A DNA stretch of 64,000 nt from Eledone cirrhosa (taxonomy: Eukaryota). Numbering within the stretch: position 1 is the stretch's first letter; each line of letters opens with the position of its first letter. The stretch spans positions 13,454,001 through 13,518,000 of the forward strand of contig OZ024756.1 in NCBI GenBank assembly GCA_964016885.1, in the 5' to 3' direction. Below the pieces are notes generated by a model. The model ran no database searches. It was not told the origin of the DNA and saw only the letters and a program-made list of their open reading frames with translations. The position numbers and the translations under genes are program-made. Shown piece by piece: positions 34,555-58,961 of the stretch.

Positions 34555-34611
<57 letters not shown>

Positions 34612-34738: not shown

Positions 34739-34844
<106 letters not shown>

Positions 34845-35067
34845 ATATAGACAGTGTCGATGTTCATAAGCAGAAATACAATAAGCTTACATTCAAGCAG
34901 AGTTAACCTCTCTGAAGACGGTTAAAAAACCAGAAACGGCGATTGCTCCTCCTTCGTTTCACCACTTTGAAAATTTATAGCAAAGATATAAAAGTGTTTG
35001 TTGACACGAACATTTCGTATATAATTCAATATACAACCCCAATCAAATATACACATGTGTATACATT

Positions 35068-35118
<51 letters not shown>

Positions 35119-35249
35119 TAATATCTCTATATATTAAAATAATATCTAAACATAGAAATGACCCAGCGGATAGGCAAATCAGAGAGGCAAGCGAAATAGA
35201 GCTTAGAAGGCTAAAGCTAAACAGAAAAAATGAATGAAATAACAACGCC

Positions 35250-35770
35250 CAAACAAACAACACTGACTTAAGGGAAATATAAATAAATAAATAGATAAAT
35301 AAATAAATATATATACAAGCACAATAACAACAAACACATGTAAACACACACTAGTAAACTAAGATAGAATACAATAACCAAAACACAGTCACCCAAACGC
35401 GAACACACACCAAACACTATACACACATGCAAACGCATGCGCAGAGACGGAGACAAAAATAAATAAATAAATAAATAAACAGATAAAAGAAAAATGGCGT
35501 AGACATACAATACAACAGGAGGAACATAATAGTACCACTGATGATGTTGCAGATGTGCAACGAAAGAACTTTGTTAGACTATATATATGTATCTATATTA
35601 TATCTGTATTTTTGACCGTTGGTCAGTCAATGATAAACATTGAGGACCAAATGAATTAACTATGGAGATATAAAAGATACAGAAGCGAAAACCAACCAAA
35701 CAGTGAGTGTGTTCTGTTATTATTTCTGGGAATATTATTACAATATGACCCTCCCCAAGTATAACAATAT
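35250..35770 (+). mobile_element. Diverged relative of the same Penelope-like 3' region
   Basis: Shares CGCATGCGCA, AAAATGGCGTAG, an HHR and the terminal TGACCCTCCCCAAGTATAACAATA with the 12455/38136 family. Confidence 0.65.
35534..35574 (+). ncRNA. Type I hammerhead ribozyme motif
   Basis: acca-CUGAUGA-u-GUUGCA gaug UGCAAC-GAAA-gaac-UU-uguu; stem II covaries with the 12618/38943 copies. Confidence 0.65.
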
Positions 35771-35918
35771 ATATATATATATATAAGTAGAAGTTGTATT
35801 TAATTTGTTGGAAGTCCGACAAACATAAATGTTTATAACTGATTTAGAGCACTCAACAGAGTGGAGTAAATATTCAATGATATTAAATAAATGGTAACTA
35901 TATTTATAAAACCATATT

Positions 35919-35983
35919 TATTTTATTATATATATTTCAAGGGCAACCAATATAACATTGGTACGCTTTCATCAGATAAAATA
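35919..35983 (-). ncRNA. Type I hammerhead ribozyme motif, intact core
   Basis: UAUUUUAU-CUGAUGA-aagcguaccaau guuau auugguugcccuu-GAAA-UAUAUA-UA-AUAAAAUA: 8-bp stem I, palindromic stem III, AUA site. Confidence 0.85.
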
Positions 35984-36648
35984 CAAACTTTATTTTATAA
36001 ATAAAGACGTACCCATGAAAACCATACCTTATCGGATGGAAATTCACTGGATAGTGGAAATATATTAGGGATTATTCAAACTTATGTGTGAATATGCAAA
36101 TGAATATGTAAATAATTGAAAAACAACCGTTTATTTAAATGACACCGGAGAAAGAGATAGAAGAAAGAGAGAGAGAAAAAATAATATTACGAGAGAGATA
36201 GAGAGAAGGAATTAACAAGAGGATGAATAGAACTCATTTAACGTTAATATGGGGGAATACATTTTAAGTATATATCTACTAATGGTACGTATATTTACGA
36301 TTATTTAGTTGTTAAAATTCTTTTCTAATATAATATTTACTGTTATAAGTAGATAGAAAAATAAATAGATATATATAGAAAAATAAATATAGAAAAAAAT
36401 AAATATATATAAAATTACATAGAAAAATATATGGAAAAATAAATAGATAGAAAAATAGATAGATAGAAAAATAAATCAATAAATAGATAAATAGATATAT
36501 AGATAGATAAATGAATAAATGGGTATATCGTGTTATAGATAATTGTTTTAATGAGGGATATTGGTTTATATTTAATGTAAGTAAATATTGAGTTAAATTA
36601 ATTTAGTTTGAGTTCACTTTAATTTAATTTAATTAAACTCAATATTTA

Positions 36649-36736
<88 letters not shown>

Positions 36737-36742
<6 letters not shown>

Positions 36743-37057
36743 CAAGAATCAACTACATCACAAGGAAATTACCCAGCATCCCATCACATCCTCTACGGAA
36801 CTACCTTAGGAACTCACCCACGGACATACACTCCAAAAAATTGTTTTTCCCACACGCCACCTACATCCACAACACGTATAAACACCACACACACTTGCGT
36901 ACCACCACATATTTACACACTCAGCTTCCGGAATCCTCTCCCCCCACCCCTCTGACCCCTCCCCATCCACACACGCACACACACACCGACCTACACCCCA
37001 CCCCACACACACCTTTTCCTGAACATGCAACCCCGTTCTTCCCTCAACCCTTGCTTT

Positions 37058-37093
<36 letters not shown>

Positions 37094-37461
37094 TACACCT
37101 ACACACACACACCACCTTCAGCCCTCCCCGCTCGGACACCCCGCCTCCCTCTCCCCACTCCACCCACCACCACCCCTACACGCCCCACACTCTTCCACCA
37201 CTTGTTTTATTTCATGTTTATTTTTATTTTTATTATGCTTTTATATTTAATTTCATTTGTACCGTTTCCTCTCAGCCCTTTTTTCTATATGTCTCTCCAC
37301 CACTCCCCTACACACCCTTGGAACTCTCTTCCCACACACTTTTCGCCTGAAGAAGGGCTTATGCCCGAAACGTGGTTCCCCACCACCACCCCACTCTCAA
37401 GAGCGTGAAACTAATAAACCTTTGTTCGTACTGCCTCTCTGTTTTGTTCCCGTTCAATTTT

Positions 37462-37467
<6 letters not shown>
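36737..37467 (+). mobile_element. Probable Penelope-like 3' remnant with hammerhead
   Basis: Contains CCTGAAGAAGGGCTTATGCCCGAAACG followed by AATAAA, flanked by (TA)n on both sides. Confidence 0.55.
37344..37376 (+). ncRNA. Minimal hammerhead-like motif
   Basis: CUGAAGA-a-GGGC uuau GCCC-GAAA-cgug; the cleavage triplet and stem I are imperfect. Confidence 0.55.
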
Positions 37468-37545
<78 letters not shown>

Positions 37546-37584
37546 TATATATATAGATATATATATGTATGTATGTATATATAG

Positions 37585-37638
<54 letters not shown>

Positions 37639-37869
37639 CCTTTTACTTGTCGTCACGTAAAATTCTGTGTGTAATTGTCACAGCTTAGTTGCTATAAGTT
37701 ACTGTTTCGTCTCATCTCTTACTCCACTGGACAGTGCTTTGGCTTGCGTCAGAGTCTATGACCACGGAGTTCTGTGTATTTCGTTTGTATTTTTATTTAA
37801 AAGGTTTTACCCTAAAAAATTGTTTTTTGTTCGTTTTCTTGTCCTCTCTTAGTTAATTTTCCCGAGTTT

Positions 37870-37927
<58 letters not shown>

Positions 37928-37993
37928 TAAAGTGGTCCTTCATCAGTGATCTTCCAACCATCACAGGTATTTCTTCGCTTTAAAGACAATATA

Positions 37994-38054
<61 letters not shown>

Positions 38055-38135
38055 GTGAGGAGTGTTCACCGGAGTTAGCCCCTGTCATAGGAAGACATAA
38101 TGTTATGATGTTATGATAAGACGATGTTATGATAA

Positions 38136-39110
38136 GGGTCTTTGGAACGGGTATGTCTTGCTAATAAGTGTTTTTACGGAGGTACCAGGTACCAGGTACC
38201 TCCGTAAAAACACTTATTAGCAAGACATACCCGTTCCAAAGACCCTCATGTATAGATAAGAAATGTATAACCTGTAAAATAAGCCCCCATATTAACTGTA
38301 AAACTAGAAATGTAGTGTATAGCATAAGATGTACTGAAGGACAATGTAGAAACAAAAATATAGTGTACATAGGTGAGACAGCTCGTAGTGTAGGGGAACG
38401 GATAAATGAACACTGGGGAGACCTTCAAGATAATAAAGAATCATCTGTACTCTACCAACATGCTAAGATAGAACACAGGGGTAAATTAGAGAACATAGAA
38501 ATAAAAATAGAATCCACACACAGAAAAGATGCAATGTTTAGGCAAATTACAGAGGCAGTAAGCATAAAAGAATTAAAACCAAAATTAAATAGAAAATATG
38601 AGTGGAACAGCAACATCACAACTTACAATTAAGGACAAATGAAAACACACACACACATAGAACAAACAACTTACAATTGAAAACACACACAAAATGAAAA
38701 CACACACAGGACAAAATGAAAACACACACACACATAGAACAAACAACCAACCAACAATAAATAAATAAATAAATAAATAAACAAATAGAAAAATATAAAT
38801 AGAAAAATAGAAAAATGAACACAAACACACACAGACACCCGGATGTGGCGCATGCGCAAACTGAGCACACAACACACACACAGAAACAAAATGGCGTAGG
38901 ATAGAAGAAAGGAAAGGCACAGAAACGAAGAAAGGAATCCGCAGTCACTGAAGAGGTCACAGAGTGTGTGACGAAAGGACTATGACTATATATATAAACA
39001 ACTATCTGGTTGTGGAACCAACCAACCAACCAGAAATTTATAAGTTTGTAGATTTGTAGATTTGTAAATTTATAAATTTATAGATATATAATAAATTGAA
39101 GTGAAAGCAA
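38136..39110 (+). mobile_element. 5'-truncated Penelope-like element: GIY-YIG C-terminus plus 3' pLTR with hammerhead
   Basis: ORF 38168-38632 has C..C...CKTRNVVYSIRC...YIGETARSVGERINEH...E...KPKLN (GIY-YIG). There is an inverted duplication at the 5' junction and an HHR at 38943. Confidence 0.88.
38943..38987 (+). ncRNA. Type I hammerhead ribozyme motif (PLE pLTR)
   Basis: Same as the 12618 copy; lies about 310 bp downstream of the GIY-YIG stop codon. Confidence 0.82.
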
Positions 39111-39573
39111 CTATATATAAATAAATATATATAAATATATATAAATATATATAAATATAAATATATATAAATATATATAAATAAATAAATATAAATATAT
39201 ATAAATATATATAAATAAATATATATAAATATATATAAATAAATATATATAAATATATATAAATATATATAAATATAAATATATATAAATATATATAAAT
39301 AAATATATATAAATATATATAAATAAATAAATATAAATATATATAAATAAATATATATAAATATATATAAATATATATAAATATAAATATATATAAATAT
39401 ATATAAATATATATAAATAAATATATATAAATAAATAAATATAAATATATATAAATATAAATATATATAAATAAATAAATATATATAAATAAATAAATAT
39501 ATATAAATATATATAAATTAGAGATAATTCGCTCCACGTCCTTTTCTTCTTTAAGTTTATCATATTATTATTT

Positions 39574-39766
39574 GTGGTGGATTGGCAGTATCGGTCGAGG
39601 GTCGGACGCCATGCTTTGACGCATAGAGTTACGGTCCTTGCAGATTCTGAGTTCAAATCCCGCCGAGATTAACTTTGCCTTTCATCCTTACGGGTTCGAT
39701 AAAATAAAGTACCAATAATGCACTGGATAATTTGCTGGCCTTGTGCCGAAAGTAGAAACAATTATT
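39574..39766 (+). mobile_element. SINE copy
   Basis: Same family as 11793. Confidence 0.78.
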
Positions 39767-40458
39767 TGTGTTATATAAATGTGTGTGTGTTCGGAAAAGA
39801 TTGTTTTGGTTGAAACAGGAGTACGCAGGTGGTACCGTCACTGCGACGACTGGGACCTGTATACACGACAGTGGTCTGTGTTTTTGCTGTTGTTGTCGTT
39901 GTAAGTGTTTTACTGTGGCTGTTGCTTTAGTTGTTGTTGTTGTTGTCAATAGGGTGGTGGTATCACAACGACTTTTGCGACCAGTGTAGACAACTTTGGT
40001 CGGCGGTTTGGTGTTACTGCCATTCTTGTTGTTGTAGTTGTTGTCTATAGGTGGTTGTCAACTAAATGTATACCCCCCCCCCCCCCCAGAGCTCCTTTTA
40101 TTGCATCAACTGTCTACTGGGTTTTGGCTGCACACAGTTCTTCGTTCTTTTCGTCTTTTTTCGTTGATATCTTTTTCTAACAAGCGCGACGGCTGGCAAA
40201 CCCTTCAAGGAACTCATATGTCTGCTGGGCGCACAGGCATTAGGATGTGTGTTATCCTGCCAGCGACATATCAAATATATCGATCTTCATCTGAGGAAAC
40301 CGTTCTCATAATCAACAGCAAATGCATGAAGGACTTCTCGATTGCATGGAGAACCGTGGAAATAATTATTATGATTAAACAATATATGTAACCTCAGTAT
40401 CTTATTTTATTATTTATATATATATATATATATTACTCCTTCATTACGTTTATTGGTT

Positions 40459-40543
40459 GGTGACGCGCGTTTCGCCACTGACCAGCTCAAGGTTAGATCT
40501 GTATCGATCTGACCCGACTCTGTAATCCGCGGCTCGTCAGACC
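40459..40543 (-). ncRNA. Type I hammerhead ribozyme with long stem II, intact core
   Basis: GGU-CUGACGA-GCCGC...(extended hairpin)...GUGGC-GAAA-CGCGCG-UC-ACC; GUC site; AAUAAA follows closely. Confidence 0.85.
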
Positions 40544-40559
40544 CCTTGTAAAGTTAATG

Positions 40560-40643
<84 letters not shown>

Positions 40644-40686
40644 CAATAATATTAATAAATGGAAATTATCTTTATAAAACCATATT

Positions 40687-40747
40687 TATTTTATTATATA
40701 TATTTCAAGGGTACCAACATTTTGGTACGCCCTCATCAGTTAAAATA
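40687..40747 (-). ncRNA. Type I hammerhead motif (paralog of 35919)
   Basis: uauuuuaa-CUGAUGA-gggcguaccaa aaug uugguacccuu-GAAA-UAUAUA-UA-auaaaaua; one mismatch at the base of stem I. Confidence 0.78.
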
Positions 40748-42061
40748 CAAAAGTTGTTTTACAAATAGTGACATATCCAAAAACAAGAACTTATCGTTTT
40801 AAGTTCAGTTTGAATAGTGAAAAAGTATTTCAAATCTTGGGATGAATATGTTAATGAGGATAACGTTAAAATTGAAAAAAGATCGTTATATTTAGACGCT
40901 AGGTAAATTTAAATAATTATTAGGATTGTTTTTTAAGGGAAGAGGAGAAAGAGGTTAATATTAGGGTAGAAGAAATTTAAGGAAAGAATATAAGAAAAAA
41001 GTATATTAGAGTTAGAAATAGTCTATTTATATTAATATAAGTATATAAACTGTATGGAACATATTTGTGAGGTTGTAGAGAAAGTGAAATAATTATATTT
41101 AATTATTTAATTATTTAATTATGTATTTGATGAGTATCTATAATATAATGTGAGAATTATAACTGTCTTAAAGTGAGAGATATTGCATTCATATATAATG
41201 TGAGAATTATAACTGTCTTAAAGTGAGAGATATATTGCATTCATATAAACGATTTGGTCAATTCTAATAGTGTGTTTTAATATTATAGAGATAATATTTA
41301 TAAGTATATATTATGAAGATTAGAGTAGTAAGTATATTTTATTTTATTATATTACGACAGGTTATTTATATATATATAATTTTATGTTGTTTTTATTAAT
41401 AGATAGATAATAACTATTTTTATGTGAATAGTTACGATGAATTTTTGTTTACGTTTTCAATATATGTTTAAGAAAACAGGAAGTAGTTCTATTTTATTAT
41501 AGAAGATTATTTTGTACATTAAACAGTTGCATCAAGATAGGAATAGATTTACGAAATTATAATAAATTTTCATATATATGTAAAGTTTAACTGTTACTTA
41601 GAAGAAATGTCATAGTTCGAAGGAGAAGATAACTCTAAAATTTCTTAGTTAAAGTAGTTAAGATATATTTACCGTTTATTCTAGAATTTACTTTAAAAAA
41701 ATTCAAATTATGATATATGGAAAATTTATTTTATATATAATTTTATAGTATCATATATTACATATTTTCTAAGATAACAATTTATATTTGTATTGTGATA
41801 GCATTCCTTATATATATGCATAGTTTAGTGGTATTAAGTATTTATATGTAAGAATTTACAATGTCTATATAGTCTATTAGGAAAAGATTCTACAGACATC
41901 CAAAGTATATTCGAAAACATCGTTAAAACCATCACAAGAAAAAAAAAATACATTAAAAAATATTATTTAAAAACATCTACAAAGAACGGCGAAGACCTCT
42001 CTCTCTCTCTATATATATATATAAAATGTAAACAGGTGAGATAGAGAGGCTATAGATAATA

Positions 42062-42151
<90 letters not shown>

Positions 42152-42174
42152 GAAAGGTATAGAAAATATTGTAG

Positions 42175-43168
<994 letters not shown>

Positions 43169-43357
43169 TATATATATATATACATATATTTATATATATA
43201 TATATTTATATATATATATATATATATATATACAGTATTTATATATATATATTATGCCGTCGGGGTCATACTTTCTCCTATTACCCACTCTACTACCCTA
43301 AGTATTGAGTACTCTGGTGCGTTATGGTCCATCTGGTTCCTTACCACAACTCCTTCG

Positions 43358-43411
<54 letters not shown>

Positions 43412-43422
43412 TATATATATAT

Positions 43423-43457
<35 letters not shown>

Positions 43458-43709
43458 TTTCATTTATTGGCCACAAGGGCCGACATATAGGGGACAACAC
43501 AATAGACAGGGACAGTGGGGGTTTACATAGAGATCGAGTAAGTATAAATAACAAAAAAAACAAAATAACAATAAAAATACAACAATGAAAGTTCCCCAAT
43601 AAGAGGGATCACCACCCAGGGTTGACTCAAGCACCCCACCAGTCCTGAGCCACCCGACGCTCCTAGGGCACCCGGGAAGGGCACCCCTCTCCTTCTCGAA
43701 TTCACCAGC

Positions 43710-46700
43710 CTACAGGCGCATGATCAGAGTAGGCCCACTCACGCGGGCCATTCTCGCCACATTCACCCACCTTTCAGTAAATGTACTGGGGGGCAGCACT
43801 TCTCTCTCCACCCTCACCTTCCTTTCCAAGTGAAACTTGAAGAAGTTGATGAGGGATTGGCCGAAGAGAAAAGTGTCTGTCTTCAGTCCTTTCAACCTGG
43901 TCCACCATGCAACCTCTTTCGCTACTGCCACCAGGCAGAGGAAAATTGCCTGCCCTTCCTGACCAAAAGAAGGCGGCGGGTCAATCTTCACTATGGACTC
44001 GGACGATAGCCGGATCCGTTCTACACGCGACAATAGCTGTTCGACATAACCCCACAAGTCAGCAATGCACGGACACTGGACGAGTGCGTGCAGAACGGTT
44101 TCGTCGCTCTGCGCGCATCTCGGGCAGGTTCGTCTGACAGCACTTCCGTGCCTGTAGAGTTTATCCCGAACCGGCAGCGCCCCCCGGTAGCACTGCCAAG
44201 CGAGGGATTTCTGGAAGTTATCCATCGTCCCCGGCTCGAAAGTCCTCCGGAACATACTGGTCAGTTCTACTTGGTTGACGCCCAGAGCCTCTCCTAGTAC
44301 GTCATCGCACTTGCCCTCCACTAATCCTCTATAGAAATCTTGAGTGGAAGTTCCACTGACCGCATTGCCCACCTTGCAGAGTGCAGTGAGCGCCTGGCAA
44401 CATTCCAGATGCCAGTCGCCCAGTCTCGGTCTCTTCTTGACCCAGGACTGCAGCTCAGTCAAAGAGATGAGCTGCGGAAAGGCCCGTCTAACAAACGGCG
44501 ACCACACCTGTTCACCGTTTAGGCAAAATATCTGGAGATGTCGCAGCCTCAGCGCATGTCTGCGCATCATTAGCCACGGCATGCCCAGCCCTCCACGAAG
44601 AGGGTGCTGGCAGCAGATGGACCGCCTCACCAACGGGACCCGTCCCCTCCACAAAAATTTGAAAAGGAGCCGTTCCAAATTGGCGAGGCGTGGACGGGGG
44701 CAAGGCACGACGGTCAGGCGGTAGTAGATGACGGACGCGATGTACGCGTTCGCCACCTCCGCCCGCCCTTTCAGTGATAGCTTTCTCTCAGCCCATTTCT
44801 GGGTGAGGTTGGCTATCCTGCTCGTCACCTCGTCCCAATTCTTATCCACCTGGAGGTCTGGTCCGAACCAAACCCCGAGCAACTTTACCGGTCCGTCTGT
44901 CCAGCGCCCAACGACGCTGTTGGACGGCATGGACTTGCCTCTCCAGGTGCCGAGCTGCAAGCCCACCGACTTTTCCGGGTTAAGTTTTGCTCCCGTCAAC
45001 CTTTCATATTCCTCCAAATGGGTGCGGATCACCTCGATTTCCGAGGTGTCCGACACCATCACGGTGATGTCGTCCGCATAAGCGGACGCAGCCTTTCTGC
45101 GTCCCGGTTCGAGCGGGATGCCCTGCAACAACTCCAGCTTCCGCAGTAGAGGCTCAAGAGTCAATACGTACAGAAGTGAGGAGAGAGGGCACCCTTGACG
45201 GACCGATCGAGAGATCTGAAACGGTTCCGAGAGGTGGCCATTAACTTTGACCACCGAGCGGATGCCGCTGTACATTGCAGCGATCCAGCTTCTGAAGACG
45301 GGGCCGAAGCCAGCCGCCTCGAGGACAGCCTCCAAGTACCGATGGTCGACCCTATCGAATGCTTTCGATTGATCTAAATTGATCAGAGCCCCACCGAAGC
45401 CAGGTTTGCACCCAACCCTCTCTATGATGTATCGCATGAGGTGGAGGTTGTCGTGTATGGACCTGGTCGGGATTGCGCAAGTTTGCGCCTCCCCAACCAA
45501 ATCCTCGACGACAAGCGCCAACCTTTTCGCTAACACCTTGGCCAAAATCTTAAACTCTGTGTTGAGCAGGGTTATGGGCCTGAAATTATCTAGTGTGTCC
45601 CTCTTGTTCTCGTCTTTCCTTATCAGCGTCACTACGCCACGGCTCACAGAACTGGGAATGCTCCCGTTCTGCTGCCAGTTGCAGTAGAGCGCTTCGAGGA
45701 GATCGGAGAACAAGTCTGGCATATTTACGTAAAGCTCGTAGGGCAGACCATCCAAACCGGGTGACTTGCGACTCGAGCAGCCGACAAGGGCGTCCTGAAT
45801 TTCGGCTGATGTTATCGGCTCTTCGCAGCGCTCAGCGTCGGCCGTCGAGAGGCGTGGCAAGCCGTCGAGGTAGGGACTGAAGTCCGCCGCCGTCTCCGAC
45901 TCACCCATCCTCCCGAACAATCGAGCAAAGTGCTGGCGAAAGGCCTCACACATCCGCTTGGAATCGCTCAGTTCGTGTCCATCTCGATCCGTCAAAGACC
46001 GAATTGTGGTTTTATTTCCACGCTGCGTCTCTGCAAAGCGAGCCCATCGGGCAGCTTTGGTTCCCTCGTTCCTCAGAGCACGCGCCTTAGCTCTGACAAT
46101 GCAACCTTCGTGTTTCGCATTGAAGAAATGGTCTAGTGCCATTCTCGCCGCTAGCACGTCTGTTGCAATGCCACTACAAATAGCCTCGTCTAACTTAGCT
46201 ATCAGCCCCTCCTCCTTTCTATTTTTCTCTATTGCTACTTCTTTGCTAAATCCTATCGAGGTTGCTCTAATCTCTCTTTTGAGTGCCCCCCACCACCTGT
46301 TGTTGACAACCCCCCCTGTCAACTTTTGCTTAACTAAGTTGTTGACCCGGTCCCTGTAAGCTTTACGTGCCGGAAACGACATGTTTAGCTTCCAGTAGCT
46401 AGGTCCTAACCTACGTGTCTTATCTAGGTCGACCATACAGATCACAAGCTTGTGATCTGAATAGGCAACCGTTTTAAAATGTGGACATCCTACACTATTT
46501 CTATCTCTTTTCCTAATGAAAATCCTATCTATGTACGATCTAGATGACCCTATGCGATTGGTCCAGGTCCATACTGGCGCATTAGGGAAATCTAGTCGGT
46601 ACCTGTCAGACAGTTGAAACTGGCTGATCAGGTACTTGAGGCTTTTGCACCCCCCGCTCCTATCAGATACTCCCACACAATCCCAGCGTGCTTCTAAGAT

Positions 46701-47129
46701 GCCATTCCAATCCCCTATTAACAGTAAAGGGCGAGACGTAAGCAGAAAGTTTTCCAGGCGCCTAAAGAAGTCCGGCCGACCGGCCCCAGTAGGGGCGTAG
46801 ACGGCCACCAGTCTAAAGGCACCACCTTCGCTATTGCTCACGTCCAGGACCACCAACTTTCCGTCAGGATCCCGGAAGATTGACCTTACCTCGAGATCCA
46901 GACATTTCCTAAACAGCACAGCCACTCCACCTCCCATTCCCGGCCGACTAACAGATGCAAAGATCTGATAATCGTCGAAAATCGGCGCCAGTGCGCGTGT
47001 GTCGGAAATTCTGGTCTCGCTGATGGCAATTACATCCATTCCTAGTGACCTGAGGTCGTTGAGCAAGTGACCTTGCTTCCAGGGCGACCCCAGGCCACGA
47101 ACATTTAAACTTCCTACTCTTATGGCCAT
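43710..47129 (-). CDS. LINE ORF2: APE endonuclease + reverse transcriptase + C-terminal CCHC
   Basis: 1139 aa intact. EN motifs SLNVRG, ISET, YAP, GDWN, IDRIF, SDH; RT motifs KSPGLDG, FRPITLLN, DQSKAFDRV, RQGCPLS, YADD; C-terminal CPRC...ETVLHALVQC. Confidence 0.96.
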   Translation of the reverse strand: MAIRVGSLNVRGLGSPWKQGHLLNDLRSLGMDVIAISETRISDTRALAPIFDDYQIFASVSRPGMGGGVAVLFRKCLDLEVRSIFRDPDGKLVVLDVSNSEGGAFRLVAVYAPTGAGRPDFFRRLENFLLTSRPLLLIGDWNGILEARWDCVGVSDRSGGCKSLKYLISQFQLSDRYRLDFPNAPVWTWTNRIGSSRSYIDRIFIRKRDRNSVGCPHFKTVAYSDHKLVICMVDLDKTRRLGPSYWKLNMSFPARKAYRDRVNNLVKQKLTGGVVNNRWWGALKREIRATSIGFSKEVAIEKNRKEEGLIAKLDEAICSGIATDVLAARMALDHFFNAKHEGCIVRAKARALRNEGTKAARWARFAETQRGNKTTIRSLTDRDGHELSDSKRMCEAFRQHFARLFGRMGESETAADFSPYLDGLPRLSTADAERCEEPITSAEIQDALVGCSSRKSPGLDGLPYELYVNMPDLFSDLLEALYCNWQQNGSIPSSVSRGVVTLIRKDENKRDTLDNFRPITLLNTEFKILAKVLAKRLALVVEDLVGEAQTCAIPTRSIHDNLHLMRYIIERVGCKPGFGGALINLDQSKAFDRVDHRYLEAVLEAAGFGPVFRSWIAAMYSGIRSVVKVNGHLSEPFQISRSVRQGCPLSSLLYVLTLEPLLRKLELLQGIPLEPGRRKAASAYADDITVMVSDTSEIEVIRTHLEEYERLTGAKLNPEKSVGLQLGTWRGKSMPSNSVVGRWTDGPVKLLGVWFGPDLQVDKNWDEVTSRIANLTQKWAERKLSLKGRAEVANAYIASVIYYRLTVVPCPRPRLANLERLLFKFLWRGRVPLVRRSICCQHPLRGGLGMPWLMMRRHALRLRHLQIFCLNGEQVWSPFVRRAFPQLISLTELQSWVKKRPRLGDWHLECCQALTALCKVGNAVSGTSTQDFYRGLVEGKCDDVLGEALGVNQVELTSMFRRTFEPGTMDNFQKSLAWQCYRGALPVRDKLYRHGSAVRRTCPRCAQSDETVLHALVQCPCIADLWGYVEQLLSRVERIRLSSESIVKIDPPPSFGQEGQAIFLCLVAVAKEVAWWTRLKGLKTDTFLFGQSLINFFKFHLERKVRVEREVLPPSTFTERWVNVARMARVSGPTLIMRL

Positions 47130-47158
47130 GCTGGCAGGATGAATGGGAGAGGAAAGGT

Positions 47159-49069
47159 TTACTTACCTTCCGGGGTCTTGTGAAGGTCGGGTGGTTCGAC
47201 CTCCATGGTTTGTGGGGTTTCTTTTGGGAACCCCTTTAATAGTCTTGACGTGGGTTTTACGTTCGGGGTTCCCACATCCCGAGGAAAGCTCTTTCGAATT
47301 TCTTTGTATGAAGCGAGCGACATTCGCATCAGAAGCAAATTATCTGGTACGCGAAATGTGCTCGCTTCAAATGTTTCCCCGTCTTTTTCGATGTTTGTGC
47401 TTCGTGCTACATGGGCCATCAATTCCTTGTTGGCCCTTCTGGCAAGCACGAAGTTTTTAATGTTTTGTTGCTCGGGTTTTATTTGTTCGTGTGATTGTGG
47501 TGGTGATAGCTTTGTTAGTGTTGTTTCTATTGTGTCTGCGTTTGTTGTGGGTGGGGTGTCTGTAGTTTCTGATGTTTGTGTGTCTATTTGTTCTTGTGTC
47601 TGTTTAGCTTGTTTGCGTTTGGGGGATTTTGGTGGTTGTGTTGGTGATGCTGTGGGGAAAATGTTTGTGTGGGTGGTGTGTGTATTTTTTTTTGTGGGGG
47701 TGTTTGTGCTTTGTGGATTTCTTTTTTTTTTGTGTTTTGTTTTTTGTATTTTGGGGGACTTTGGTTTTCCCTCATCTTCACTGCTGGAGGATGAGGGGTC
47801 TGTGGCTGTGAGCGTGTTTGTGTCTGAGTGAGTGTTTATGTTCTTGTTCGTGTGTGTATTTTGGGGGGGAGGGGGAATGGGAGAGCTTTCCTCGTTTCCC
47901 CCCTGGGTGTGCAATTTTGGTGGTTCCATTGTTGACGGTGTTGCTGGTGGTCCTTGTCCCGGCGTCGCCAGCAGTGGAATCTTTCGACCCCTTGCGCTTT
48001 TCGGCAGTTGAGGGCAGAAGGCTCGCAAGTGTGTCGTTTCCCCACAAAGGAAACAATGCGGCCTTTTGCCCTCAGTCATTATATGCAACACCCTCCCGTT
48101 TTGGAGGCGGATGTGGTCCGGGATTGTTTTTACGTTTTCGGGTCTGATTTGGAGCAGTATCTCCAGATCAACCCCGGACCAGTCGTCCCTGGCAGTTCTC
48201 GTTGCCTCTACCGGGACTGTATCCGTTCCTTCCACGATTACGCAACCCAGGAGCCACCACATATCAAGTCCTGGTGGAATCCTGGGAATGCGCACACGTG
48301 CTATTCGTTTTCCCATGTGGGAGGGGTACATTATGACCTTGCTGGTTTTGCAAGGGGTCATTGAATGCTTCACAGCGAGGGCTTCAGACTTGAACAGCAC
48401 CGAAACGGTGCCGTATTGCCTGCCCCTCTCTATGAAGTCTGTGTCCTCTCTGATGTATTTCAGTGCGGCTTCTATGTCAGCTTGGGCGATTATCGCTGCC
48501 CTCTTTGTCTCTACTGAGATGCATCTGAAATGCACCGTTCTTTTTTCCACTGCCTCAATGGCTTCTGCCGGGACAGTTAAGTTTGCCCAGGTCTGCTCTT
48601 GATTTATGATTTTCCAGGCCTGGGCCAACTTTTCCTCTCTGTTGGTTAGGTCGATGCTGTAGCATGGTCTCCTTTTAGCCGCTGCCACAGCAGCGAAAGT
48701 GTTCTTGTTGGTGTTGTCACTGTTGTTGTTCTTGTTGGTGTTGCTGCTGCTATTGCTGTTGTTGTTCTCCCCTGTGTCGTGGTTACCTTCTGTGCTGTTG
48801 GCCTTGTTGGTGCTGCTGCTGTCGCTACTATTACTCTCTGTGCTGTTCGTTTTGTTGGTGCTCTCGCTATTACCACCTTCTGCGCTGTTCGGCTTGTTGG
48901 TGTTGGTGTTGTCGCTGTTACCACCTTCCGCGCCGCTCGGCCCGTTGGTGCTGGCACTGTCGCTGCTCACATTCGTGCTGGTGGCGCTCCTCGCCTCACC
49001 TCTCCTCTCAACGCTCAAGTCGCCGTTGCACGACAGCAGACCCGCCTCTAGGGGGCGTGGCTCCGCCAT
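47159..49069 (-). CDS. LINE ORF1 protein (gag-like, CCHC zinc knuckle)
   Basis: 636-aa intact ORF with CFLCGETTHLRAFC (CX2CX4HX4C) and N/S-rich and P/K-rich low-complexity ends; lies directly upstream of ORF2. Confidence 0.88.
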   Translation of the reverse strand: MAEPRPLEAGLLSCNGDLSVERRGEARSATSTNVSSDSASTNGPSGAEGGNSDNTNTNKPNSAEGGNSESTNKTNSTESNSSDSSSTNKANSTEGNHDTGENNNSNSSSNTNKNNNSDNTNKNTFAAVAAAKRRPCYSIDLTNREEKLAQAWKIINQEQTWANLTVPAEAIEAVEKRTVHFRCISVETKRAAIIAQADIEAALKYIREDTDFIERGRQYGTVSVLFKSEALAVKHSMTPCKTSKVIMYPSHMGKRIARVRIPRIPPGLDMWWLLGCVIVEGTDTVPVEATRTARDDWSGVDLEILLQIRPENVKTIPDHIRLQNGRVLHIMTEGKRPHCFLCGETTHLRAFCPQLPKSARGRKIPLLATPGQGPPATPSTMEPPKLHTQGGNEESSPIPPPPQNTHTNKNINTHSDTNTLTATDPSSSSSEDEGKPKSPKIQKTKHKKKRNPQSTNTPTKKNTHTTHTNIFPTASPTQPPKSPKRKQAKQTQEQIDTQTSETTDTPPTTNADTIETTLTKLSPPQSHEQIKPEQQNIKNFVLARRANKELMAHVARSTNIEKDGETFEASTFRVPDNLLLMRMSLASYKEIRKSFPRDVGTPNVKPTSRLLKGFPKETPQTMEVEPPDLHKTPEGK

Positions 49070-49278
49070 GTTTTTTTGAGAAAAAAATTATTATTTTTTT
49101 CAAAATAAAGTTCAAATATTTGGGCCAAAAGGCCCAAATATTATGAGTTATTCCTTCACAGGATACAAATTAATGTCTTATAATGCTTCAGCGGTACAAA
49201 AAATAAACAATTCTCTACAATTAATCCTCAAAAATTGCTTACTCACGGAGCTTCAAAAAACGTACATCCACTTTCGTC

Positions 49279-49333
<55 letters not shown>

Positions 49334-49559
49334 GTAATAATAATGGGTTACATTATCGTAAAAGAGGATAGAAAGAAGAGGTATAAAAAGGTGCGATACA
49401 GAATATTACATGCCAAAAGCGGATGCGTAAGTGCTCAATGCTTGGGTTATCAGGGTTAAATATTAGAGAAAGTTAATATTTAGTGTAAAGGACCAGCAGA
49501 GCTGTAAAAGCAAAAGAATGATTGAATGAAAGAGTTGCCAGACGTTAAAACATATCTTT

Positions 49560-51318
49560 ATATAGCTCTTGCACGTGTTTCGCCCAAGGGGGCTCATCGG
49601 AGGCAGATATTAAAAGCAAAGTTTTTAATTACAGACCCTAAGGGGTTAAATAATAACTTTACATCGCCATGCATTGTAATTTTAAATGTTATTGGTATAA
49701 ACACGGTGAAAGGAGTATAGTTTGCTAAGGGAGGTAATTGCCGGTGTCAGTATAACTTATGACCAGAACCAGCTATGGAAAAAAGATTTTTATTTAAAAG
49801 GAATTAACATATGTGGGCTTGGTCAACTCCGTATAAATGATGCCGTGTTTAGGTGTGAATATGATAGACTATTGGTAAAGTCGTTAAACACTGCACACAG
49901 GTATACCTAATGCAAGGGGGCACGTACGGTGCGAATTTGAAGGCCTAGAAAAATAATGTCGATTTGGATCGAACTTGTATGTTCATATGATTAATTATCT
50001 AAGAAGTTATTCGGGTTTAGGCAGCAGGTTCATAAGATTACTTAAACCTGGTCAGGCCAAGAAGAAGAATATAGTAGGGTGGGCTCCATTCGATAGGTGC
50101 TGTACAACTTCCTGGTGGGAAAACAGATGGTGTTATTCCACGTTGTATAAAGGTAAGCCTACCGCAGGCAGGTCAGGCTCGGGTGCGGTGTTGAGAGCCT
50201 CAGGTATTATAGTGGTTATTCAGTTGTTGGGGTTCATCTGTAGAATGATTGTTGTTGTCGGTGGCCGCAATTGATGACTGTTTCGGCCCGACTATTTATG
50301 AGCTCCTGGGGTGCTTACACTATATAATACAGTTCCATTAGGCAGAGCTGGCAGCCTTTTTTGAAATTATAAGGTGTTGCTTTGTTCACAATTTTCCATT
50401 TTGTGGTATAATCAGTTAATTGGGTAATATAATTAGCGAGGGATGTAGAGTATCTAAGTTTCCTATTCCTAAAAGAGTGGTGATGCGGTCGAAATCTAGT
50501 CTTGAACTCCCCTGAAGTAGCTCTTATGTACGACTTAACACTATTAAAACTAGTAACGGTGCATTTACAGATTACGTTTCTAGTTAAGCAGTAGCCTCGG
50601 AGTGGACAGTTGACAGGGTTACGACAATTGCAATGTTTTTTTGTTGTCACCTCTAAGGCGGTGAGGGCTGGTGTTAATCCTATTACTATTATTATCACCA
50701 TCATCTTAGTTGCTATTATTGTGGTCGGCACTATTATTGTTATATTCATGCGAAATAGTGCTATTTCTATTTCTCGTGTTATAGCGTCTTCTACAGCCGT
50801 TGTTATAGTTGCTATGGTTTCTAACCTTGTCGTCGGTCACACTACTGGCACTGTGATTAATTTCTAAGGTGGTGTTATTGTGCATACTACTGTTGACATT
50901 AAGATTCCTGTCCTGGTTACTAATATCGTTACCGTGCCGGGTGACCGAATTGTTAAGGTTGACCGAGTTGGCATGTTCCCTAATGTTCGCATTACAGGCA
51001 ATCTAGTGAGCTTACTGTGGTTGCTTATTGCTATGAGGTCGGCTAAATTAGGTGTAGTGGAATAGGAAATTTTGACGTTATTCTTGTTGAGGATTTTTCG
51101 GTATCTGTGGTTAGGTGGGAAGTTCCTCTGTAAGGCGTCGAAAAAGATTCTGGGTAAATTGGAGGCCACACTCTGAGAGTAGGGAGGATGGAACCATAAG
51201 ATATTACGCCGGCGTTTACGCGTTATTCTGGGGTTATTGCGGATGTTATTGCCGTGGTGGGTATCAAGGCAGTAGGGCTGCTGGCTAATGTGTGCTCTGT
51301 TAGCATTATGCCTATGTG

Positions 51319-51320
<2 letters not shown>
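49560..51320 (-). mobile_element. Degenerate Penelope-like element 3' part (different family)
   Basis: Encodes WFHPPYSQSVASNL...FPPNHRYRKILNKNNVKISYSTTPN and CNCRNPVNCPLRGYCL...SYI..T...FKTRF..H..SF (GIY-YIG region); a degenerate HHR lies downstream at 49565. Confidence 0.8.
49565..49604 (-). ncRNA. Degenerate hammerhead motif
   Basis: CCGAUGA-GCCC ccuu GGGC-GAAA-CACGUG-ca; two core deviations (U4C and U16.1C). Confidence 0.55.
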
Positions 51321-51371
<51 letters not shown>

Positions 51372-51419
51372 GTAGTGACGAAACATAAGTCAATTGCATG
51401 AACTCATAATCCTTTATTT

Positions 51420-51475
51420 ACTGCTTTATATATTTCGATGATAGCCATTGAATGGCTATGACCTCATCAGGCAGT
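51420..51475 (-). ncRNA. Hammerhead motif (cleavage triplet mutated)
   Basis: ACUGC-CUGAUGA-ggucauagccau uca auggcuaucauc-GAAA-UAUAUA-aa-GCAGU. Confidence 0.7.
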
Positions 51476-51519
51476 TAGTCAGTTCTTAGATATGCCAGCT
51501 CTGTGTGTATAGTGTTGAT

Positions 51520-51591
<72 letters not shown>

Positions 51592-52662
51592 GTTATTATT
51601 GCACCGACGTGAGGTATATGATTTTTAATGCAATGAAATATCTATGATCGTCGGCAAATCACTGATGAGGGACTTATTTTATTACATGTTATCCATGTGC
51701 TACCAGCAGTATTTTTCTCCCCATTTTATCATATATATATATATATATATATAAAATAACAGATTAACGTTTAAGCAAAGAATCGTAAAATGTAATGCAT
51801 GAAAAATTTGAAAACATTATTTTTTGTAATATATCAAATCAAAATTACATTATTAAATCTTATTCTTATTTTGTTTCTTGAAAATAATTTTTTCAAAATA
51901 TCAATTCCAAACTTTTGTGAATAGGCATCATATCTTCTCATTTACCTATGGTTTAAATTTCATATAAATCTAAGGGAAAAATTTTTCAGCGAGGGTTTGT
52001 CGCCCCCCCCCCCCCCCCCCCGGGAACCCTAATAAGGCGTTTAACCACCATTAGGGTGTCTTAATATTATTGAAATTAGCTGAAATTTTGTGAATAGTCA
52101 TCATGTCTTGTCATTTACCTATGGTTTAAATTTCATATAAATCGAAGGGAAAACATTTCCAGTGGGGGTTTGTGGCCTCGGGGAACCCTTTCATTAAAAT
52201 GAAATATACTTATCCAACTACCCTGAGCAATGTAGTTTCAGAATATATATGGTTATGTGGGTCTATCTCCAAAACCATAGGAGGAGTTCGTGAACAAACA
52301 AACAAACAAATAGACAGGAATACAACTTTATATATATATATATAGATATGTGTGTGTGTATGTGTGTTCTAGTATGTTCTTTGTAATCAAATTATACCAT
52401 CGTAGTATCGCGAGAACGAACGAACAGAAGAATGGATTGAAAGAATATAGTGTGTGATATATGTCAGGTGGGATTGTCTGTACACACGCTTCTACACTCA
52501 CCCCTATATTCCAATAGCTCTGTTATGGTCAGAAACATATTCTTTTACAGCTAATACAGACCAACAAAATAGGCACACCCCACTTTTCCCTTCACAACTC
52601 TGTATACACACATACACACACCCTTATATTAACATACCTTTGCTCATAGCTTCGTACTTACA

Positions 52663-52771
<109 letters not shown>

Positions 52772-53083
52772 ACTTACATATACACACACATATATTCTTA
52801 GCTTCGTACGGACATATAATAACACACACACGCACACGCACACACATACACATACGCACGTGCACAAGTATAGCCCTTTATACAAAACGGGTTTGTTTTT
52901 TTTCCATTTCAGGTAGACGCGCTCCATCATCCACTTTTCTAAAAAAATATATCATACACAAAACGCCAGCACCAACAGTTTTGCAAGAGATGTCAACATG
53001 AATGGACCTGTTATTTTTATCTAAAGGCATTTTTCCTGTTCCACCTCGCCCATCCCTTCAATCAATCTAATTTCTCATTCTTT

Positions 53084-53118
53084 TTTCTGATAAAGGACTA
53101 ACGTCCGAAACGTTAAGA
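53084..53118 (+). ncRNA. Degenerate minimal hammerhead motif
   Basis: CUGAUaA-a-GGAC uaac GUCC-GAAA-cgu-UA-aga; a related degenerate copy at about 12293-12333 (-) retains CUGAUGA. Confidence 0.55.
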
Positions 53119-53279
53119 CTCTCTCTCTTCCTGCTATATCAAGCGTTAACCTAATATACACCTTCCATATACTGTACCGAACAAGTTTCGCGTAAATGGG
53201 TGCACGGGGCTCAAGATACAGAAGTTTTCCTGTTACCTTCATAAAGAGAGAGAGAGAGGGAGTGGACACAGAGAAGGGG

Positions 53280-53355
<76 letters not shown>

Positions 53356-53386
53356 CTAGTGGTGTTGTTGTGTACATATGTATATG

Positions 53387-53420
<34 letters not shown>

Positions 53421-53628
53421 GTATTAAGGGTACTATTTATGGTTATGTATGCAATAAAACCTTTGATGGTAATATATTATATATACACAAACCCTAAATA
53501 GTGAGAGATAGTCATTAATTACTATCCTATTACCAGTAAGATAAATAGCTCAATGTAATAACACCAGTTGTTTTACAGAGCAGTTATATAGAGATTACAG
53601 TAATCAAAGTTCAGTTTAAGTAATTTAT

Positions 53629-53677
53629 TTGCTTACAATTGTTTCCTCCAAACCGAGGTTTGGATTCTTCGGAGCAA
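53629..53677 (-). ncRNA. Type I hammerhead motif, U4C variant
   Basis: UUGCU-CCGAAGA-a UCCAAACC uc GGUUUGGA g-GAAA-CAAUUG-UA-AGCAA, overlapping AAUAAA. Confidence 0.72.
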
Positions 53678-54827
53678 CTATTTATAACATACTTGACCTC
53701 CTTTTCAACCCAAGAGACACATAAAACATATGCGCATATTGATCAACAGTGGGGTGACATTCATCAAATGATATAGCATGGCAATTTACATATAAAGCTT
53801 ACAGGATAAAAATAAAATAAAATAAAAACAAGAGTGAAAATAAGAGTGAAAATAAAGATAAACATGAAGCGTTGGCAGTCTATGAAGATAAAGCAAGAGG
53901 AAAGCTTAGAGTAGTCAGTGTATGAAACAATCTCCCGTGTAGCATGCACGCGTGTCTTATCTATACATGATTAGAGTGCGTCAGAATGATATTTGCAGGG
54001 TCAGGCAGTTGAAGCAGGCAATCGATCTTATTATATAGGCTGAATTATTAAGTCATTTATTCTCATACATCTGTATGATATACAGTCTCGGATGCGGGGA
54101 AACACCAAAATATCAAAAACCTTCAACATACTATAAACCTTATTGTATCGTAGGCAAGGTCGTACCACTGTCCTTGCTCACACCACCACTCACATAATCC
54201 ATGAGACGCAATATATATATAGAGAACACGCGTCTATCGTATAATTCGCAGTGGTTCAGCATATAGTCAAGCTATAAACAGTATCCAGTCGGTTCTTAAT
54301 TAATATATCATGCTGTCCAGATTCCGGAAGTGCCTGAATGACTAAGGGGAATTAATGCGTAAGGGGAGGTAACTAGCTAGTTATCTTAGTTACATTACTA
54401 TGCTAAACTACATTAATGGTGATTCAAATACGTGCCTATCATGTGAAGTTATAACTAATATCTAGAGTATGTTACCCATTTATAGGTTAGAGAGTTGTCT
54501 ATTAAGAAGTACAAGGGTGTATATATTAGGATGATTACCATCCATTAATTATAAATAGGTTGACAAATTGAAAATTGCGATATATATTTGTTTTGCGAGG
54601 TTTTTGATATATATATATATATATATATATATACGTAGGTCCCGGGTTGAGTCGGGGATAACCACAGTAAGTAAGGTACTCAATACATGGCAGAGTAAAC
54701 ATTTTTTTTATTTTATAGAAGGAGCTTCTACAGGACTAGTATTGTTTCATTGAGATGAAATCTTACGGAAGATTTCATCTGAATGAAACAGTACTAGTCC
54801 TGTAGAAGCTCCTTCTATAAAATAAAA

Positions 54828-54920
<93 letters not shown>

Positions 54921-55191
54921 CGAGAATCGGAACCTCGGCCCACGAAATAACGAAACACAATCTTCGAAATGTGTGGCAAAGTGCTCAATAGTTTGGATAA
55001 ACCAGAGCTATAACTAACGTTTAAATACCAACACACTGAGACGATGCTTAAACAATCATTCGCACACCCGAAAACACGACCAAGAAAATTCGGGTCAGAC
55101 AAATAAAAATATATATGAATGAAAAATAAAATATATATATATATAAACATGCCTCGCAAAACAAATATATATATATATATATTGTATAGTT

Positions 55192-55885
<694 letters not shown>

Positions 55886-55994
55886 ATATTGTATAGAGTT
55901 TAGCTTAAAGCTTTCTCTGTTATTGTGTTAAATATATATATATATATAGTATTTGTCTCTGAATGACCTTTTCTAAAGCAAAACTATTGGTTCC

Positions 55995-56240
55995 CTTCCC
56001 TGTCATCTTTCCCTCCCCCCATCTCTCACACCAACCACCCCTCTCTCTAAATAACTTCCCCTGTCATCCTTCCCTCCCACCATCTCTCACACCAACCACC
56101 CCTCTCTCTAAATAACTTCCCCTGTCACCCTTGCCTCCCACTATCTCTCACACCAACCAGCCCCTCTCTCTAAATAACTTCCCCTGTCATCCCCCCCACC
56201 ATCTCTCACGCCAACCACCTCTCTCTCTAAATAACCTTCA
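55995..56240. repeat. About 60-bp pyrimidine-rich tandem repeat x4
   Basis: Recurrent CATCTCTCACACCAACCACCCCTCTCTCTAAATAACTTCCCCTGTCA. Confidence 0.8.
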
Positions 56241-56382
56241 CTCCATCTTCTCCCCCCCCTCTCTCTCTCTCTCTCTCTCTTACACTCTTACCAACGCCCA
56301 CACCTACATTTCACTGTTTTGTTGCTAACACCAACTTTACTATCACTATTGACGCAAAGAGCAATTGTAACAGAATACGTAA

Positions 56383-56413
<31 letters not shown>

Positions 56414-56419
56414 TCTGTA

Positions 56420-56473
<54 letters not shown>

Positions 56474-56597
56474 TGCAGACAGACATACAGTGTTAGTGAG
56501 AGAGGGAGATGGAAAGAATGGGATAAAATGTGACAAAGATACAGATATATATATATATGTGTGTGTATATATAATTATATATATACATACATATATA

Positions 56598-56761
<164 letters not shown>

Positions 56762-56867
56762 ATATATATTTATATATTTATATATATATTTATATATATA
56801 TTTATATATATATATTTATATATATACGATATTAAATAAATGGAAACTATATTTATAAAACCATATC

Positions 56868-56933
56868 TATTTCATTATATATATTTCAGGGATATCATAT
56901 TAACAATATGCTATGCCTTCCTCAGACAAAATA
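56868..56933 (-). ncRNA. Type I hammerhead motif (paralog of 35919), left arm of palindrome
   Basis: UAUUUUGU-CUGAGGA-aggcauagcauauuguuaauaugauaucccu-GAAA-UAUAUA-UA-AUGAAAUA; stem I is kept through G-U pairs. Confidence 0.8.
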
Positions 56934-57088
56934 CAATATAGACAGTTTTATAGATAAATAGATTTGACATACCGTTCAACATCGACTTGTATTTGAAAAG
57001 TTGATTTGGCAGCCAAATCAACTTTTCAAATACAAGTCGATGTTGAACGGTATGTCAAATCTATTTATCTATAAAACTGTCTATATTG

Positions 57089-57154
57089 TATTTTGTCTGA
57101 GGAAGGCATAGCATATTGTTAATATGATATCCCTGAAATATATATAATGAAATA
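57089..57154 (+). ncRNA. Type I hammerhead motif, right arm of palindrome
   Basis: Exact reverse-complement twin of 56868-56933. Confidence 0.8.
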
Positions 57155-57447
57155 GATATGGTTTTATAAATATAGTTTCCATTTATTTAATATCGTAAAT
57201 ATACTCCAAATACTTGTCGAGTGCTTTTATATCAGTTATAAATATTTACTAGTTGTAACCCAACAATTTAAATATTTATATATATATATATATTTATATA
57301 TATATTATATATATATATTTATATATATATATATATATATATATTGGTAAACGGAATAGAAAATGCTGACAATTGTGAACAATTTGTCAGCATTTTCTAT
57401 TCCGTTTACCAATATATAATAACTTGTGTGTTACACCTCTATTCTTT

Positions 57448-57487
<40 letters not shown>

Positions 57488-57530
57488 TATATAATTATAA
57501 TGATATTTAATAAAAACACCATGTTATTTA

Positions 57531-57591
57531 TTCATTCTGACGACTGAAGACAGACACTTCATCTGCCTTCAAGAAACCACTGGTAAATGAA
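57531..57591 (+). ncRNA. Type I hammerhead motif
   Basis: UUCAUU-CUGACGA-c UGAAG acaga...ucug c CUUCA a-GAAA-CCAcUGG-UA-AAUGAA; 6-bp stem I, GUA site. Confidence 0.72.
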
Positions 57592-57617
57592 ATAATTATC
57601 TTATGTTGTTTATTACA

Positions 57618-57654
<37 letters not shown>

Positions 57655-57867
57655 GTTATTCCGGGTTGAATCGGAGGTAACCACAGTAAGTAAGGTACTC
57701 AATACATAGCAGAGTATAAAAGTTTTAATATAGATGAGATTCTACAGGACTAGAACTGCTTCATTCTTTATATATATACCACTACAGGAATTGAATAATC
57801 AAATCTGTAGCGGTATGTCGTATATCCAAACTGAGAATATTTTTCATTCATTAATATTATGAATAAT

Positions 57868-57942
<75 letters not shown>

Positions 57943-58961
57943 GAAAAATTTGAACAGGGACAGAACAGAGAGGCAGTACAATAAATGTTTATTAAATTCA
58001 TGCTCAGGAGAGTGTGTGTGTGTGTGTGTGTATATATACGTAACGAAGGAAGAATGGTAAGGAACCAGGTGGACCATAACGCACCAGAGTACTCGATACT
58101 TTGGGTAGTAGAGTGGGTAATAGGAAAAGTGTCAAGACCCCAACGACAGAGCTCAAGCCGTTTCGACGGCTATTTCTGGACTCGTGTTTGAGTCCAGAAA
58201 TAGCCATCGAAACGGCTTGAGCTCTGTCGTTGGGGTCTTGACTATTTTCATATATATATATAGAGAGAGAGAGGGGGAGAGAGAGAGAGAGGCAGTGTGA
58301 GAGAGAATGGAAGGATGGGATAGAATGAGTAAGAACAATGTTATGTAGTGGAAAAAGACATCACATCATCTTAATAACAATCATGAGTTGATTGAAAGTT
58401 GTAAACTCCAGACAGAGGACGAAGAGAATAACACAATACCAGATGAAGCCTCCAGATGAAACATTCACAATATGTTATGGAGAAAGTGGGTAGCTAATAT
58501 TAGGCAAACTATAGATGAAACACTACAGAATGTAATGGAGAAGTGGGGGTAATTAATAGAAGGGAATCTCCAGATGAAACTTTACAAGCTATAATAAAGA
58601 AGGGGGTAGCTAATAGAAGGAACCAACTTGAATGTCTTCAGGTATGGAAGTCTTCAGGCATGGAAGTGAAAGTAGAAGATGTATTAAAAGTTAATGGGAA
58701 AAGAGGAGAATTTAACTGAAAGACAGGAAGGAATGCAGTGGTAATGCTGGAAATAGGGATGATAAATAATGAAAATATAGGACAAAAACCCAGTTAAATG
58801 AAATGGTTCGAAACAGCTCAAAGATAGATCTTAAGTTCAAATTGTAAAAAGGGAAATATAGTGTTTCCATCACAGCAATACTATATTTGAACGTCACATG
58901 AGTGCCAAGACCTTATCTTTAAGTTAGCTTGGAAGATCTAGGTTTATATATATATATATAG

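Follow-up and report, generated by a model that had tools for sequence, protein, structure and literature searches.

The window analysed here is a stretch of 64,000 nucleotides from the cephalopod Eledone cirrhosa (assembly GCA_964016885.1, contig OZ024756.1, positions 13,454,001 to 13,518,000 of the forward strand). Within a 51-kb intron of an HSPA12-like gene it holds a full-length long interspersed element (LINE), flanked on each side by an (ATT)n microsatellite. This element belongs to a family, called A, of approx. 330 near-identical copies in the genome, almost all of them full-length and within ATT repeats. As shown below, (ATT)n is the target of this family, and the same target is shared by three sister families, A2, B and C. 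The features of the locus are the following.

11139..62200, minus: intron of the HSPA12-like host gene containing the element (51,062 bases, GT..AG)
43426..43455, minus: (ATT)10, downstream copy of the target microsatellite (sequence and Tandem Repeats Finder, TRF)
43456..49278, minus: full-length LINE of family A (5823 bases; both ends match about 330 genomic copies)
43463..43468, minus: AATAAA, 7 bases before the 3' end of the element
43469..43481, minus: 3'-terminal hairpin with a 4-bp stem and a 5-base loop
43710..47129, minus: open reading frame 2 (ORF2), 1139 residues, no stop from ATG
about 44052-44210, minus: CCHC/zf-RVT region in ORF2 (Pfam zf-RVT, E 1.1e-8)
about 44871-45605, minus: reverse transcriptase (RT) in ORF2 (Pfam RVT_1, E 8.9e-30)
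about 46452-47111, minus: apurinic/apyrimidinic-type (APE) endonuclease in ORF2 (Pfam Exo_endo_phos, E 1.6e-14)
47159..49069, minus: ORF1, 636 residues with low-complexity ends, no stop from ATG
about 48014-48055, minus: zinc knuckle CX2CX4HX4C in ORF1 (residues 339-352)
49070..49278, minus: 5' untranslated region (UTR), 209 bases
49115-49142, minus: 12-bp hairpin in the 5' UTR, common to related families
49264-49269, minus: hexamer in the 5' UTR resembling a downstream promoter element (DPE)
49279..49344, minus: upstream target copy, an (ATT)n of 22 units that is in phase with the first G of the element

Each ATT run directly adjoins an end of the element, and poly(A) is absent; the upstream run is made up of 18 perfect units, one AGT and three more. 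An earlier note, made from the letters of the window alone, had described (AAT)10 and about 22 AAT units abutting an element without poly(A), with two uninterrupted ORFs and intact catalytic motifs, and all of these statements were borne out. ORF2 carries endonuclease motifs, RT motifs and a C-terminal CCHC, in agreement with the Pfam domains, and its endonuclease shows a weak match to human L1 structures (E about 1e-7); in ORF1 the Pfam model zf-CCHC_4 gave an E of 0.27 only. The stem of the 3'-terminal hairpin is fully paired in 200 of 226 distinct 3' tips and shows compensating changes in families B and C; this hairpin is predicted to be the recognition site of the RT. Families A, A2, B and C all have two hairpins in the 5' UTR (here at 49115-49142 and approx. 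49150-49165), of which one carries a GNRA-type loop, and read depth from related families is highest on the first; an Rfam search for a 5' ribozyme yielded no more than two matches, both at chance level. A donor-like AG/GTAAGT at 47167 closes ORF1 in A, A2 and C, the ORF2 stop (43710) resembles an acceptor in A and A2, and the predicted pairing between the start and stop regions of ORF2 has -41.4 kcal/mol and ranks in the top 2 of 553 windows.

The genome (3.0 Gb) was searched with exact patterns of the head and of the young 3' end of the element, which detected 324 5' ends and 338 3' ends. The heads are located directly after an in-phase (ATT)3 in 318 of the 324 cases, and three of the exceptions, which were fetched, each have a GTT unit inside the ATT run. 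With roughly 66,000 ends of one type on offer at (ATT)5 runs in the genome, this association is beyond chance; for comparison, the threshold given for target-specific elements in PMC4494074 is one sequence type in more than 20% of the flanks, and the value here is 98%. In a set of 96 two-ended copies (100 loci minus the five one-ended L062, L064, L066, L070 and L165, plus the copy in the window) the 5' flank ends on an in-phase ATT in every case, as it does in 30/30 best matches. Likewise, 213 of 226 3' tips are followed by ATT and only one by AAA. The earlier note had inferred an (ATT)n-targeting family, and had set beforehand that random 5' flanks, with (ATT)n merely as a 3' tail, would refute it; the tabulated flanks rule this case out.

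It could be argued that the copies land anywhere and are merely retained near AT-rich repeats, since the genome is very rich in microsatellites and a passive build-up has been proposed for the Drosophila elements Waldo-A/B (PMC3812793). This is hardly credible for family A, in which 98% of the copies, the youngest included, lie on one strand and in one phase, and the (TA)n, (CA)n and (GA)n runs that are abundant in the window hold 0 of 96 copies. A second alternative, that (ATT)n represents terminal repeats of the element itself and that insertion is random, would agree with the length of the 3' run, which peaks at 18 bases (26/96) as a templated tail might. Nevertheless, it is very improbable and was refuted by imperfect repeats whose interruptions are duplicated on both sides of the copy (L063, 18 bases; L071, 18 bases; L073, 15 bases), as is also seen in the truncated copy L062 (17-18 bases). 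These interruptions are specific to each site, and therefore the repeat is a pre-existing target and not a tail. In addition, the 3' flanks of L094 and L059 open with GTT directly after the element, and flanks grade into old mixed NTT repeats.

Some of the targets are themselves repetitive. Thirteen loci share the same flanking repeat holding an internal ATT run, a multi-copy hotspot (L008, L021, L029, L063, L081, L124, L126, L132, L135, L141, L158, L167 and L180). An abundant repeat resembling a short interspersed element (SINE) starts and ends at ATT runs and provides targets (L016, L091, L152, L168 and L172); it may be mobilised by an ATT-specific LINE.

Family A is young and recently expanded. 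Among 122 aligned copies, the copy in the window has a single private change, its nearest relative of the other 121 differs at 6 substitutions, and 58 copies lie within 15 substitutions. Near-identical copies occupy unrelated sites, including four dispersed pairs that differ by at most one substitution, which upholds the recent insertion proposed before. ORF2 changes found in at least three copies are 11 synonymous versus 10 non-synonymous, as compared with 161 versus 396 among singletons (p 0.03), so that shared changes are enriched for synonymous ones. Both ORFs are kept in 44/96 copies and ORF2 in 60/96; judging from its reading frames, the copy in the window may be active.

The copies are also complete to an unusual degree. 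On C1 and C2, where the lists of heads and 3' ends were paired by eye, the 98 young 3' ends comprise 88 matched to a listed head, 6 further ones that proved full-length, 2 truncated ones and 2 of older subfamilies; leaving out the latter, 94 of 96 young copies (approx. 98%) are full-length. In contrast, about 7,000 of 500,000 copies of human L1 are full-length, and the attachment of the LINE 5' end and the cause of the frequent truncation are described as an open question (PMC2881922).

A survey of junctions at 74 loci separates the two kinds of copies. Of these loci, 17 reach the locus edge, 7 hold full-length A2 copies and 50 hold partial copies with a visible junction; among the latter, 10 show duplications of 16-18 bases, 3 show shorter ones and 37 show none by the test used. 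The ten duplications begin with ATTAT or nearly so and extend into non-repeat DNA, hence the second break is fixed by distance. On the other hand, the 3' run does not exceed 12 bases in 16 full-length copies, and none of these has such non-repeat letters at its 5' junction (Fisher p 1.9e-7 for this contrast), and three full-length copies duplicate an interruption only as far as an in-phase ATT. Many truncation points lie 24-30 bases short of the 3' end, where the terminal hairpin has its base, and mostly in short ATT runs (L059, L181, L195, L203, L218 and L220 are among these loci).

A mechanism can be proposed from what is observed, i.e., the identity and phase of the target, the lengths of the duplications, the youth of the family, its full-length bias and its arrays. 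We consider it very probable that the family targets (ATT)n, and likely that it uses the repeats both for landing and for sealing the 5' end. The endonuclease would nick (ATT)n to prime reverse transcription: the ORF2 protein would grip the RNA by its 3' hairpin and nick the AAT strand right after an AAT unit, and copying would begin at the last C of the element or a few bases from it. The second strand would then be cut 16-18 bases further on, irrespective of sequence, as seen in the truncated copies. In the third step the transcript would start in the upstream repeat of the donor, so that a full-length complementary DNA (cDNA) ends in (AAT)n, which would anneal to the overhang of the target and round the duplication to 15 or 18 bases. 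That the RNA carries such a leader seems somewhat favoured by the junctions. Joining by homology would explain both the fixed phase and the near-total completeness of the copies. A comparable aid is known for R2, which is co-transcribed with its target and whose integration is helped by target sequence at the start of the RNA (PMC4494074); R2, however, targets 28S ribosomal DNA with a restriction-like nuclease, whereas the leader proposed here would consist of a microsatellite that every duplication restores.

A more specific version, for now tentative, is that the target duplication is reused as the 5' leader because an internal promoter starts approx. 18 bases upstream, inside (ATT)n. With this start the DPE-like hexamer, which is located at +10 in A, A2 and B and was recognized by comparison with the DPE consensus, would sit at +28. 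If so, each full-length cDNA would carry a ready homology arm and full-length integration would be the rule; moreover, the leader would be renewed in each round, and arrays would grow at one end as a dated history of the family.

Alternatively, there may be no ATT leader, and the enzyme of the element would cut the second strand in phase after ATT in full-length events. All four family heads start with G right after T, a plausible start site or a cap-derived G like that of L1, and duplications and spacers of 15 and 18 bases are compatible with a phased cut. We regard this alternative as less likely, given that in truncated copies, including L062 of family A, the second-strand break lies 16-18 bases on, in non-repeat DNA, and that the very young copy L094 carries on its 5' side an ATT in excess of what its target could supply, though slippage could produce it.

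Several points weigh against the mechanism favoured here, in which the repeats serve for landing and sealing. The short ATT runs beneath truncated copies indicate that the nick needs only about two units, and the specificity is thus looser than full-length copies suggest; in the truncated copy L066 the 5' flank is not ATT and an RTE-like element is found there. The truncated tips are mostly of 25-40 bases and, except for L062, not assignable to family A, and the full-length count misses tips under approx. 85 bases, which do occur. Also, the 37 partial copies without a duplication and the 3 with a shorter one depart from the proposed spacing; most of these belong to older subfamilies, in which alignments end because of divergence. 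Finally, the DPE-like motif was noticed post hoc and is not at +10 in C.

Every insertion would leave fresh target on both sides, and copies of A and of its sister families would therefore pile into chains. The endonucleases of A2, B and C are 89, 74 and 71% identical to that of A; their heads, which begin with G, follow ATT units in 9/9, 11/11 and 7/7 cases, and the three families share the compensated 3' hairpin. These three form mixed chains with A by independent insertion. In all, 2,561 heads of B follow (ATT)5 and 8,840 (ATT)5 runs follow a Tx1-type tail, so that much of the target pool is bordered by the elements themselves. Co-transduction was considered for A together with a B copy downstream of it, and was rejected. 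A special attraction of A to B heads was not supported (7/96 versus at most 3.9% of runs, p 0.08), and that to Tx1-type tails is modest (23/96 versus at most 13.4%, p 0.004); both shares are ceilings because only runs ending in ATT plus non-A were counted.

Within family A, 17 of 99 listed heads have a copy of the same family one unit away, against approx. 1% expected from the target supply (this count leaves out head C2:211669811, which has no neighbour in the list), with spacers of 15 bases in eleven cases, 18 in seven and 24 in two. This excess could mean that the head-to-tail arrays arise from local duplication, unequal crossing-over or assembly error rather than from repeated retrotransposition; likewise, the copies within the C4 and C7 arrays are mutually closest (1-6 substitutions), and in C1 there are two identical copies and an apparent mosaic structure in copies 7-9. 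As a full account this is rather unlikely. In the 10-copy array at C1:423.36-423.42 Mb, intact young copies on the 5' side give way to broken old copies on the 3' side (rho 0.95, p 2e-5), array neighbours differ by up to 52 substitutions, and in mixed chains near-identical A copies stand next to B copies 46 substitutions apart. Two other arrays have the oldest copy first, and those of C4 and C7 are near-uniform; these differing patterns indicate that more than one process acts. Same-family arrays would probably need, in addition, a local process such as template jumping from one RNA to another, several insertions at a single site or unequal crossing-over. At the 3' end of the 10-copy array (L101), a short inverted piece of the 3' tip of the element interrupts the last duplication.

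Polar head-to-tail stacks of retrotransposons on a simple repeat are known for SART/TRAS and HeT-A/TART, which are telomeric; the arrays described here differ in being inside chromosome arms and in having spacers of 15-24 bases. A separate ORF1 with a zinc knuckle is typical of the Tx1 clade and is present in this element, together with the Tx1 layout of ORF2 (N-terminal APE, RT and C-terminal CCHC). From this layout and its behaviour, the element likely belongs to Tx1; no named Tx1 sequence was found among the relatives looked up (20 clusters). The nearest named relatives are from Argonauta hians (61-71% identity), followed by Patella caerulea (approx. 30%). In this limpet, eleven near-consecutive gene models encode a related ORF2 (cluster P0012), which suggests that it likewise has a tandem array of a related element. 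In the read runs X5 and X6, a second organism (organism B) holds a closely related family at very high depth, and a third (organism C) has pieces approx. 99.9% identical to the element with a depth of 6-10; these pieces may stem from contamination or transfer.

Kibi, Koshi and the crocodilian microsatellite Tx1 are likewise APE-type LINEs specific to a microsatellite, but they are vertebrate families that insert into (TC)n, (TTC)n, (TTCC)n and (TTTC)n (PMC4494074). Identity with Kibi or Koshi was rejected, as all 96 5' flanks end in ATT and not in (TC)n or (TTC)n; for such families the relevant part of the same source mentions neither aged arrays nor a full-length bias that is near-total. Dong, of the R4 clade, uses the same repeat, TAA microsatellites (PMC3812793), and is present and recently active in Octopus vulgaris (PMC13282606). 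R4-clade elements have a restriction-like endonuclease (PMC4640811) and a single ORF, whereas the element described here has an N-terminal APE and two ORFs; identity with Dong was thus discarded, and two unrelated nucleases would reach the same repeat. A vertebrate-type L1 was also rejected, given the lack of a poly(A) tail and the 3' tips followed by ATT, and none of the L1-specific Pfam domains was found in searches of ORF1 and ORF2. O. vulgaris has 80 L1-Tx1 families, 13 of them recently active with 421 insertions (PMC13282606), and an (ATT)n family of this type may be among them; that account, in the passages on these families, gives no target preference and no array structure; PMC9115989 appears to cover RTE and Dong only, and PMC8869645 brings nothing further on this point. 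No Tx1 element targeting (ATT), (AAT) or (TAA) is described in the literature searched; Repbase, outside this search, may hold one.

Regarding the host gene, three mollusc HSPA12A homologues place residues approx. 37-131 at 62482-62198 and residues approx. 132-204 at 11135-10917, all on the minus strand, and the gene is 92% to HSPA12A of Octopus bimaculoides. Since the homologues pass from residue 131 at 62198 to residue 132 at 11135, the element lies within the 51-kb intron and is co-oriented with the gene, as the earlier note had stated. The AATAAA that it was said to bring into the intron is real, yet the gene strand of the intron has 51 such hexamers, of which 3 are inside the element; premature polyadenylation of the host gene through it is not supported by anything beyond the hexamer, and the intron has 48 others. 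Ahead of its conserved start, the HSPA12-like gene shows a long N-terminal extension rich in Pro, Thr and Asp (62201-63004). Directly upstream of the ATT run, positions 49345-51300 hold what appears, from a characteristic motif, to be a decayed Penelope-like element, and a Pfam search of this stretch gave no match. A GIY-YIG fragment is found at 38168-38629.

The (ATT)n-specific, recently expanded LINE family is real, and its mode is like that of Kibi and Koshi with a different target, which adds a new target for APE-type site-specific LINEs. Both DNA breaks can be reconstructed in hundreds of its young insertions, and with a family that is approx. 98% full-length and a phase rule that splits full-length from truncated copies, the homology model can be put directly to the test. 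With regard to gene-insertion tools, it is also of interest that this LINE enters a common non-coding repeat as a whole. Together with its sister families, which number thousands of copies, the family has a sizeable influence on the ATT microsatellites of this genome.

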